Shown: positions 25,323 through 27,127 of the stretch, in pieces
Layout of the letters: every line of letters begins with the position of its first letter
How positions within the stretch are numbered: position 1 is the first letter of the stretch
Sequence record: PQ666539
Source of the DNA: Shigella phage sb1
Reading direction: 5' to 3' (one strand)
DNA length: 64,000 bases
The notes under the pieces: model-generated
Told to the model about the DNA's origin: nothing
Database searches by the model: none
The model's input: the letters and a program-made list of their open reading frames with translations, nothing else
Program-made: the position numbers and the translations under genes

Positions 25323-27127
25323 TGAAACAAAATATTAATATCGGTAATGTTGTTGATGATGGCACCGGTGACTACCTGCGTAAAGGTGGTATAAAAATAA
25401 ATGAAAACTTTGATGAGCTTTATTATGAACTCGGTGATGGTGATGTTCCATATTCAGCCGGTGCCTGGAAAACTTATAATGCTTCATCCGGTCAAACATT
25501 AAAAGCTAAGTGGGGAAAATCATACGCTATTAATACCTCTTCTGGAAGAGTAACTTTACAACTTCCTAAAGGAACTGTTAATGATTATAATAAAGTAATT
25601 AGAGCTAGGGATGTATTTGCAACATGGAACATTAATCCAGTTACTTTAGTAGCTGCTTCTGGGGATACAATTAAAGGGTCGTCATCGTCAGTTGAAATTA
25701 ATATTCAATTTAGTGATTTAGAGCTCGTTTATTGCGCTCCAGGACGTTGGGAGTATGTCAAAAACAAACAAATTGACAAAATTACCAGTTCAGATATTAG
25801 TAATGTAGCTCGCAAAGAATTTTTAGTAGAAGTTCAAGGACAAACTGACTTTTTAGATGTTTTCCATGGAACTAGTTATAATGTCAATAACATCAGAGTA
25901 AAACACCGCGGTAACGAATTATATTACGGCGATGTATTTAGTGAAAACAGTGACTTTGGCTCTCCGGGGGAAAATGAAGGAGAATTAATTCCTCTTGATG
26001 GATTTAATATTAGGTTAAGACAGCCTTGTAATATTGGCGATACTGTTCAAATTGAAACGTTTATGGATGGTGTATCACAATGGAGAAGTTCATATACAAG
26101 ACGCCAAATAAAAGTACTAGATTCAAAACTAACGTCAAAGACTTCTTTAGAAGGAAGCATTTATGTTACTGATTTATCGGCGATGAAATAAATTCCATTC
26201 TCCGCGTTTGGATTAATTCCTGGCGAACCCATTAATCCTAATTCTCTCGAGGTTCGTTTTAATGGAATTTTACAGCAACAGGCTGGAACAGCTGGGTATC
26301 CTCTGTTTTTGTGCGAAGGCGCTAATTCAGATACGCAAGAAGGATGTATATCTCTTGGCGGCGAATGGAAAGAATCAAACACCGATTATTCTATAGAATA
26401 TGAAGACGGAAAACCTATCAGTCTTTTATTTGATAGAAAATTTGAATCCGGTGACATTATCGTTATAACATGGTTCAATAACGATTTAGGAACTCTTTTA
26501 GAAAAAGATGACATTATTGAATTGACTGATGACCGCTATGTTAGCAAAGGATCATCTACCGAGGTTACTGGTGATGTGGCCTTAACAGATTTTGATAAAA
26601 TTGGTTGGCCAAATGTTGAAAAAGTTGATTCTTATACTAGAACGTATAATTCAATATCATCTATTTTCGATAGCATTTATCCTGTAGGTTCAATTTATGA
26701 AAATGCTATAAACCCAAATAATCCGGTGACTTATATGGGGTTTGGTTCGTGGAAATTATTTGGTAAAGGACAAGTGTTAGTAGGATGGAATGATGATGTT
26801 ACGGATCCAAACTTTGCTTTAAACAATAATGATTTAGATTCTAGCGGAAATCCTTCACATACTGCCGGTGGAACGGTTGGAACAACATCATTAACGCTTG
26901 AAAATGCAAATCTTCCTGCGACTAAAACTGACGAAAGAGTTTTAATTGAAGATGAAAACGGATCAGTTATTATTGGAGGTTGTCAATATGACCCAGATGA
27001 AACTGGTCATATATATACAAAATATCGTGAAGACTATGCAACAACAAACTCTTCACATACTCCTCCTACTAATATTAGTAATATTCAACCGTCTATTACT
27101 GTATACCGTTGGATAAGGATTGCATAA
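25322..27127 (+). CDS. 10: gp10 baseplate wedge, interrupted by in-frame TAA at 26189-26191
   Basis: track ORFs 25322..26191 and 26309..27127 share frame; 602 codons. Confidence 0.85.

Follow-up and report, generated by a model that had tools for sequence, protein, structure and literature searches.

The question raised by this locus is whether the baseplate wedge gene of a T4-like phage is really interrupted near its middle, or whether it is only written so in the sequence record. The window, i.e., the whole stretch of 64,000 nucleotides of Shigella phage sb1 (PQ666539) that was analysed, is the late/structural-gene region of a Tequatrovirus, with about 97% identity to its nearest public relatives. 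The best records over 25 kb reach 96-97% identity and none is identical to the window. Its gene order, gp53-5-6-7-8-9-10-11-12-wac-13-...-23-24, agrees with that of six annotated relatives. The segment 25000-27300 was matched by 501 phage records in a megablast search, with identities of up to about 97.9% (Escherichia phage Killian, UGKSEcP2 and others); in all of them, gp9, gp10 and gp11 are annotated under the match. Gene 10 sits between genes 9 and 11, within the baseplate wedge cluster (gp6-7-8-9-10-11-12-wac), and it carries the stop codon under study:

25322..27127, plus strand: gene 10, coding for the baseplate wedge protein gp10; colinear with T4 gp10 over its full length and interrupted by a single internal TAA
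26189..26191, plus strand: in-frame TAA at codon 290 of gene 10 (C26190A, TCA (Ser) to TAA)

The initial annotation had described an in-frame TAA after ...LSAMK, followed by an open frame leading into the ORF 26309..27127, for a total of 602 codons. Translation from the ATG at 25322 bears out this description. Indeed, the frame reads ...VTDLSAMK up to the TAA at 26189-26191, then runs on (30 protein letters were given for the start of this continuation) free of stops until the TAA at 27125-27127. It comprises 602 codons, the last being the terminator; with codon 290 taken as sense, this leaves 601 sense positions. The unbroken frame of about 600 amino acids typical of gp10 is therefore lacking, as codon 290 reads TAA. 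The 601-aa gp10 of Killian aligns with the window in a single ungapped tblastn alignment (residues 1-601 on 25322-27124, 99.2% identity), in which the sole stop is at position 290. With the Ser restored, residues 1-601 align in one stretch with residues 1-602 of T4 gp10 (phmmer against the PDB, 5HX2/5IV5; E=0, 1175 bits). An additional frameshift, envisaged in the initial annotation, is absent, both alignments running uninterrupted. The gene thus resembles T4 gp10 (PDB 5HX2, 5IV5, 2FL8, 2FKK) in its colinearity over the full length and in the gp9-gp10-gp11-gp12 order, and Ser290 and its flanking motif (31 protein letters) are conserved with the T4 protein, from which the record differs by a TAA at codon 290.

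As written, the gp10 product would end after 289 residues and would be devoid of its C-terminal half, including the equivalent of the 2FKK crystal fragment (query residues 396-601). The ORF 26309..27127, opened by a TTG, is the mere mechanical remainder of gene 10. The codon at position 290 is TCA in Killian, PBM-1, Ec_YwIITB1, ZCEC15, pSs-1, sb2, 121/2022-2B and T2, and TCT in the Mosigvirus phiC120; T4 gp10 has Ser290 within the motif MKSIPFSAFG. Over the 101 bases surrounding the codon (26140-26240), none of 534 matching phage records is 100% identical. The closest, 121/2022-2B, matches at 100 of the 101 bases (99.0%) and has TCA at the codon. Exact copies of the 289-aa gp10 fragment, of gp7 and of gp8 were looked for in an assembly index, with no match. 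The exact 47-mer, as well as a 32-mer in which the mutated base was set to N, is absent from IMG/VR and from GTDB genomes, and the sole metagenome contig with the local gene 10 haplotype reads TCA. Since every relative examined has Ser at codon 290, the stop is a single C-to-A change at 26190, private to this sequence.

Two more private changes of the same G:C>T:A class are found further along gene 10:

26891, plus strand: G>T, V524L
27009, plus strand: C>A, P563H; the Pro is also present in T4 gp10 ('GPIYTKYRE' vs 'GHIYTKYRE' in the window)

All three private G:C>T:A changes of the gene (S290*, V524L, P563H) are non-synonymous, and the eight remaining private changes are all synonymous.

The stop in gene 10 is not isolated. 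The initial annotation, which rightly recognised a gene 10 broken by a lone in-frame TAA, overlooked that in-frame stops likewise occur in the adjoining gene 9 and, across the window, in a further 23 genes. When the proteins of relatives were aligned by tblastn across the whole window, 29 premature stops were counted in 25 genes, at the following positions:

3072: denV
12247: gp57A
13504: gp3
17212: gp5
18418: gp6
25107: gp9
26189: gp10
29327: gp12
33858: gp16
34975 and 35461: gp17
36125: gp18
42042 and 42312: gp22
43617: gp23
51075: uvsW.1
52141: uvsY
53609: gp51
54634 and 55075: gp27
55897: gp29
57684: gp48
61449: alt
6039, 6353, 7753, 9066 and 59586: hypothetical genes (six in the overall count)

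TAA, TAG and TGA are all represented, and they stand in for codons of Glu, Ser, Tyr, Gly and Leu. G>T or C>A accounts for nearly all of them, as in GAA>TAA, GGA>TGA, TCA>TAA, TCG>TAG and TAC>TAA. Several lesions could be described precisely:

3072-3074: stop in denV, TGC>TGA, identical in Shigella phage sb2
25107..25109, plus strand: in-frame TAA in gene 9 (baseplate wedge / long-tail-fibre connector), codon 218, GAA>TAA by G>T
28277..28278, plus strand: 1-nt deletion in gene 12 (short tail fibre), CCC to CC, which shifts its frame, seen as two tblastn alignments in different frames
29327-29329, plus strand: TAC>TAA at the final sense codon of gene 12, with loss of the last residue
36125..36127, plus strand: stop at codon 128 of gene 18 (tail sheath), GAA>TAA, with the identical change in Shigella phage sb2

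A genome written with such stops could not form a plaque, as the major capsid protein, the tail sheath, the terminase and the baseplate hub are affected.

Other features of the window were recorded alongside. In the gp67 (prohead core protein) region, 40616-40876, tblastn aligns no more than residues 1-50/52 (of 79-85), and the 3' part, compared with Killian and pSs-1, has diverged or is disrupted. Between gp18 and gp19, a segment of about 650 bp (37724-38380) encodes a 205-aa hypothetical protein, gp19.1, 100% identical to its pSs-1 version. This segment is missing in Killian and found in PBM-1, pSs-1, ZCEC15 and others, which is an ordinary presence/absence polymorphism.

The spectrum of substitutions was then established over the window. 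A substitution was called private when all mapped relatives (4-6, with a minimum of 4) agree and the window differs, every position of the window being mapped. Counts of private substitutions and of those belonging to the G>T + C>A class are as follows:

Window, whole (1..64000): 553 private, 214 G>T + C>A (114 G>T, 100 C>A), 39%
Window, 5150-47600: 346 private, 143 G>T + C>A, 41%
Window, 47000-64000: 141 private, 55 G>T + C>A, 39%
Killian, 5150-47600 region: 93 private, 6 G>T + C>A, 6%
PBM-1, 5150-47600 region: 41 private, 7 G>T + C>A, 17%
Ec_YwIITB1, 5150-47600 region: 222 private, 11 G>T + C>A, 5%
ZCEC15, 5150-47600 region: 156 private, 11 G>T + C>A, 7%
pSs-1, 5150-47600 region: 239 private, 9 G>T + C>A, 4%
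sb2, 5150-47600 region: 206 private, 25 G>T + C>A, 12%

In summary, this class makes up 3-7% of private changes in clean relatives. Its burden touches about 0.93% of all G:C positions of the window and is evenly spread, with 23-36 changes in each of eight 8-kb bins. Both strands are affected alike (114 G>T vs 100 C>A), so that the excess is strand-symmetric and bears on a single class, as expected of unselected damage or of a sequencing artefact. No context preference was detected for these changes: trinucleotide rates range from 0.36 to 1.41%, and pentamer dispersion does not exceed that of random placements (p=0.62). Clustering is mild, with 21 gaps of 15 nt or less vs 10.6 +/- 3 expected. 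Undoing the private changes lifts the G+C content of the window from 35.77% to 36.03%. The tRNA cluster (9561-10388) itself bears six private G:C>T:A changes (9722, 9725, 9866, 9873, 9903 and 10239), and all ten tRNAs are still detected by ARAGORN. Among the relatives, Ec_YwIITB1 (PQ356294) has two CDS annotated for its major capsid protein and two for hoc (locus 39813-41374, 44361-45790); its sequence probably contains errors too, yet without a G:C>T:A excess (11/222).

The consequences of these changes for the encoded proteins are those of a process blind to coding. The expectation was calculated by taking each coding G or C as equally likely to be hit:

Private G:C>T:A, observed: 24 nonsense, 162 missense, 17 synonymous
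Private G:C>T:A, expected: 24.5 nonsense, 160.2 missense, 18.3 synonymous
Private transitions, observed: 2 nonsense, 59 missense, 189 synonymous (76% synonymous)

Observed and expected effects of the G:C>T:A class do not differ (chi-square p=0.94), and these changes carry no trace of purifying selection. The two apparent nonsense transitions are probably due to mis-assigned frames. The profiles of both classes differ strongly (p ~1e-45), which indicates that ordinary divergence has been filtered by selection, whereas the G:C>T:A class was never exposed to it.

Records deposited alongside the window share part of this pattern. Shigella phages sb2 (PQ666540) and sb4 (PQ666542) are Tequatrovirus from lake water in Kolkata whose 10 tRNA genes are those of the window and, like it, they display split structural genes and an excess of G:C>T:A. 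In the sb2 annotation, the tail sheath is split at the gene 18 stop codon. In sb4, uvsW, gp27, gp28, gp48 and alt are each distributed over two to four CDS (17-kb locus), and the 186 private changes include 44 G:C>T:A (24%) and 34 A<->T, with insertions too; sb4 appears to suffer from the same quality problem as the window. Unlike the window, neither sb2 nor sb4 has the gene 10 TAA, the burden of sb2 is lower, and that of sb4 comes with A<->T changes and insertions. According to the published description of the four phages (PMC11993411), the genomes have the following characteristics:

ADG1 (PQ666539): G+C 35.16%, 285 CDS
AKR2 (sb2, PQ666540): G+C 35.49%, 254 CDS
CRD3 (sb3, PQ666541): G+C 35.52%, 255 CDS
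TMC4 (sb4, PQ666542): G+C 35.35%, 291 CDS

All four carry ten tRNAs, exactly those of the window (PMC11993411). The lower G+C content and higher CDS count of ADG1 and TMC4, compared with the two cleaner genomes, are what a loss of G:C pairs (roughly 1% in the case of ADG1) and the splitting of genes would produce.

The sites themselves are partly shared. Nineteen derived G:C>T:A sites are common to the window and sb2 exclusively, including the denV and gp18 stops, and four are common to the window and sb4, whereas about 0.4 coincident sites would be expected by chance if errors were independent. Random damage striking each molecule independently is thus insufficient to account for this overlap with sb2. 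Along the sequence, G>T sites that are shared alternate with unshared ones at distances of tens of bases, and they form no shared haplotype block. The overlap suggests an error tied to particular sites, cross-talk among libraries that were run together, or a damaged template common to both.

Taken as a whole, the gene 10 TAA is best explained as an error of sequencing or assembly, or as damage to the template after replication, and not as a feature of the living phage, with a probability of roughly 0.87. The actual phage almost certainly has TCA (Ser290) at this codon and makes a normal 601-aa gp10. The physical cause would be either oxidative damage combined with a library of low complexity, or a fault in base calling or consensus building. 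A G:C>T:A process, uniform and independent of context, has touched about 0.93% of the G:C positions of the record; such a signature is expected from the insertion of an A opposite oxidised guanine (8-oxoG) during library amplification. The process being blind to coding, stops appear wherever GAA, GGA, TCA, TCG or TAC codons are struck. The presence of 8-oxoG changes in a consensus would imply a severe molecular bottleneck or a fault in consensus calling. Indeed, classic 8-oxoG library artefacts have a low allele fraction (Costello et al. 2013, PMC3616734) and, for this reason, are not expected in a deep-coverage consensus unless very few library molecules were present. The changes described here resemble these artefacts (Costello et al. 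2013, PMC3616734) in their C>A / G>T class, in striking both strands alike, in their indifference to coding effect and in being seen in several samples of a single laboratory. They differ from them in that the artefacts of Costello et al. were of low fraction and linked to acoustic shearing (PMC3616734), whereas here they are in the consensus and the DNA of the siblings was fragmented enzymatically (CTAB extraction, Twist enzymatic-fragmentation kit with PCR, NovaSeq 6000, de novo assembly; PMC11993411). CCG contexts are not enriched among the G:C>T:A changes of the window (1.01% vs 0.93% overall). A preference for the CCG context is reportedly a property of the artefacts of Costello et al.

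Some other technical sources were considered and rejected. Systematic context-dependent miscalling, such as that of nanopore reads on glucosyl-hydroxymethylcytosine, does not fit with the flat contexts (p=0.62) nor with the siblings having been sequenced on an Illumina NovaSeq, and a literature search on such miscalling returned nothing specific. A preference of oxidation for GG doublets is contradicted by CCN contexts being hit at the mean rate, and bleed-through from a neighbouring A/T in two-colour chemistry by G/C-flanked contexts being hit at the mean rate.

Some readings place the stop in the DNA of the phage. The G:C>T:A changes, TAA included, could be real in the sequenced DNA as a result of oxidative lethal mutagenesis or of defective genomes complemented at high multiplicity, so that the gene 10 stop would physically exist, but in a non-viable genome. 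The identical G>T changes in the separately deposited sb2, with the denV and gp18 nonsense codons among them, look like inheritance, and the changes have reached the consensus, unlike usual low-fraction artefacts. Nevertheless, this reading is unlikely, as nonsense, missense and synonymous changes occur in the proportions of random expectation (p=0.94), a few replication cycles would purge stops from at least 20 essential genes, the interleaving of shared and unshared G>T sites within tens of bases is not that of haplotype blocks, and the four phages formed plaques during their isolation and propagation (PMC11993411). A heritable variant of it, in which the burden is real and partly inherited because the window phage, sb2 and sb4 share G>T changes including the denV/gp18 nonsense codons, with oxidatively mutated defective genomes persisting by complementation, is judged somewhat less probable again. 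If it were true, the gene 10 ochre codon would be present in packaged DNA.

Other readings would let the phage live with the stop. Suppressible nonsense mutants are a familiar part of T4 genetics, and the classical T4 gene 10 amber mutants are conditional lethals, isolated as single mutations and grown on suppressor hosts. Like them, the record has a single nonsense codon in gene 10, clean and in frame, with an intact and highly conserved frame downstream, as would suit a viable ochre mutant, or a gene split in nature, whose expression relies on suppression, readthrough or re-initiation. Unlike them, it has an ochre codon, which is one among 29 stops of three kinds, and no suppressor. Indeed, the 10 tRNAs (Arg, Asn, Tyr, Met, Thr, Ser, Pro, Gly, Leu, Gln) all have wild-type anticodons according to ARAGORN, which found no suppressor tRNA in the window; this holds for Ser(tga), Gln(ttg) and Leu(taa). 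TAG and TGA are among the remaining 28 stops, and no single suppressor reads all three. Neither a cognate suppressor or readthrough context nor a restriction to one stop class was thus found. Re-initiation is opposed by the lack of an in-frame ATG past the TAA, the first in-frame start being the TTG at 26309, which is not preceded by a Shine-Dalgarno sequence. Moreover, the stop occurs in none of the 534 related records. A viable phage with multiple nonsense codons was rejected given the genes affected (major capsid protein, sheath, terminase, hub and wedge) and the fact that nonsense changes are not depleted. The nonsense mutant, split gene or readthrough implied by the initial annotation is therefore unsupported, the stop being a C>A at a conserved Ser and part of a window-wide G:C>T:A burden; a viable ochre mutant or split gene is very improbable, and any translational mechanism is at best as improbable. 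Stop-codon reassignment, with TAA read as an amino acid, would account for many in-frame TAA in conserved genes, but it is close to negligible: five different amino acids are replaced (Glu, Ser, Tyr, Gly, Leu) instead of one, all three stop codons are found in frame, genes still terminate at the TAA, TGA or TAG positions of their relatives, and nearly every stop is one G>T or C>A step away from the relatives' codon, in a number equal to random expectation.

With the error or template-damage reading retained, gene 10 of the phage is an ordinary T4-type gp10, and its stop is not to be taken for a pseudogene, a split gene or recoding; the noteworthy property of gene 10 implied by the initial annotation does not stand. 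The spectrum of private substitutions, examined together with the nonsense, missense and synonymous proportions against random expectation, provides a quick test to tell artefact from biology. As biology, the gene 10 stop is without importance. It matters for data hygiene: about 200 erroneous G:C>T:A calls in a 64-kb record split 25 genes, lower the G+C content and raise the number of genes counted, and such records will be flagged again and again by automated searches for in-frame stops, recoding or pseudogenes.
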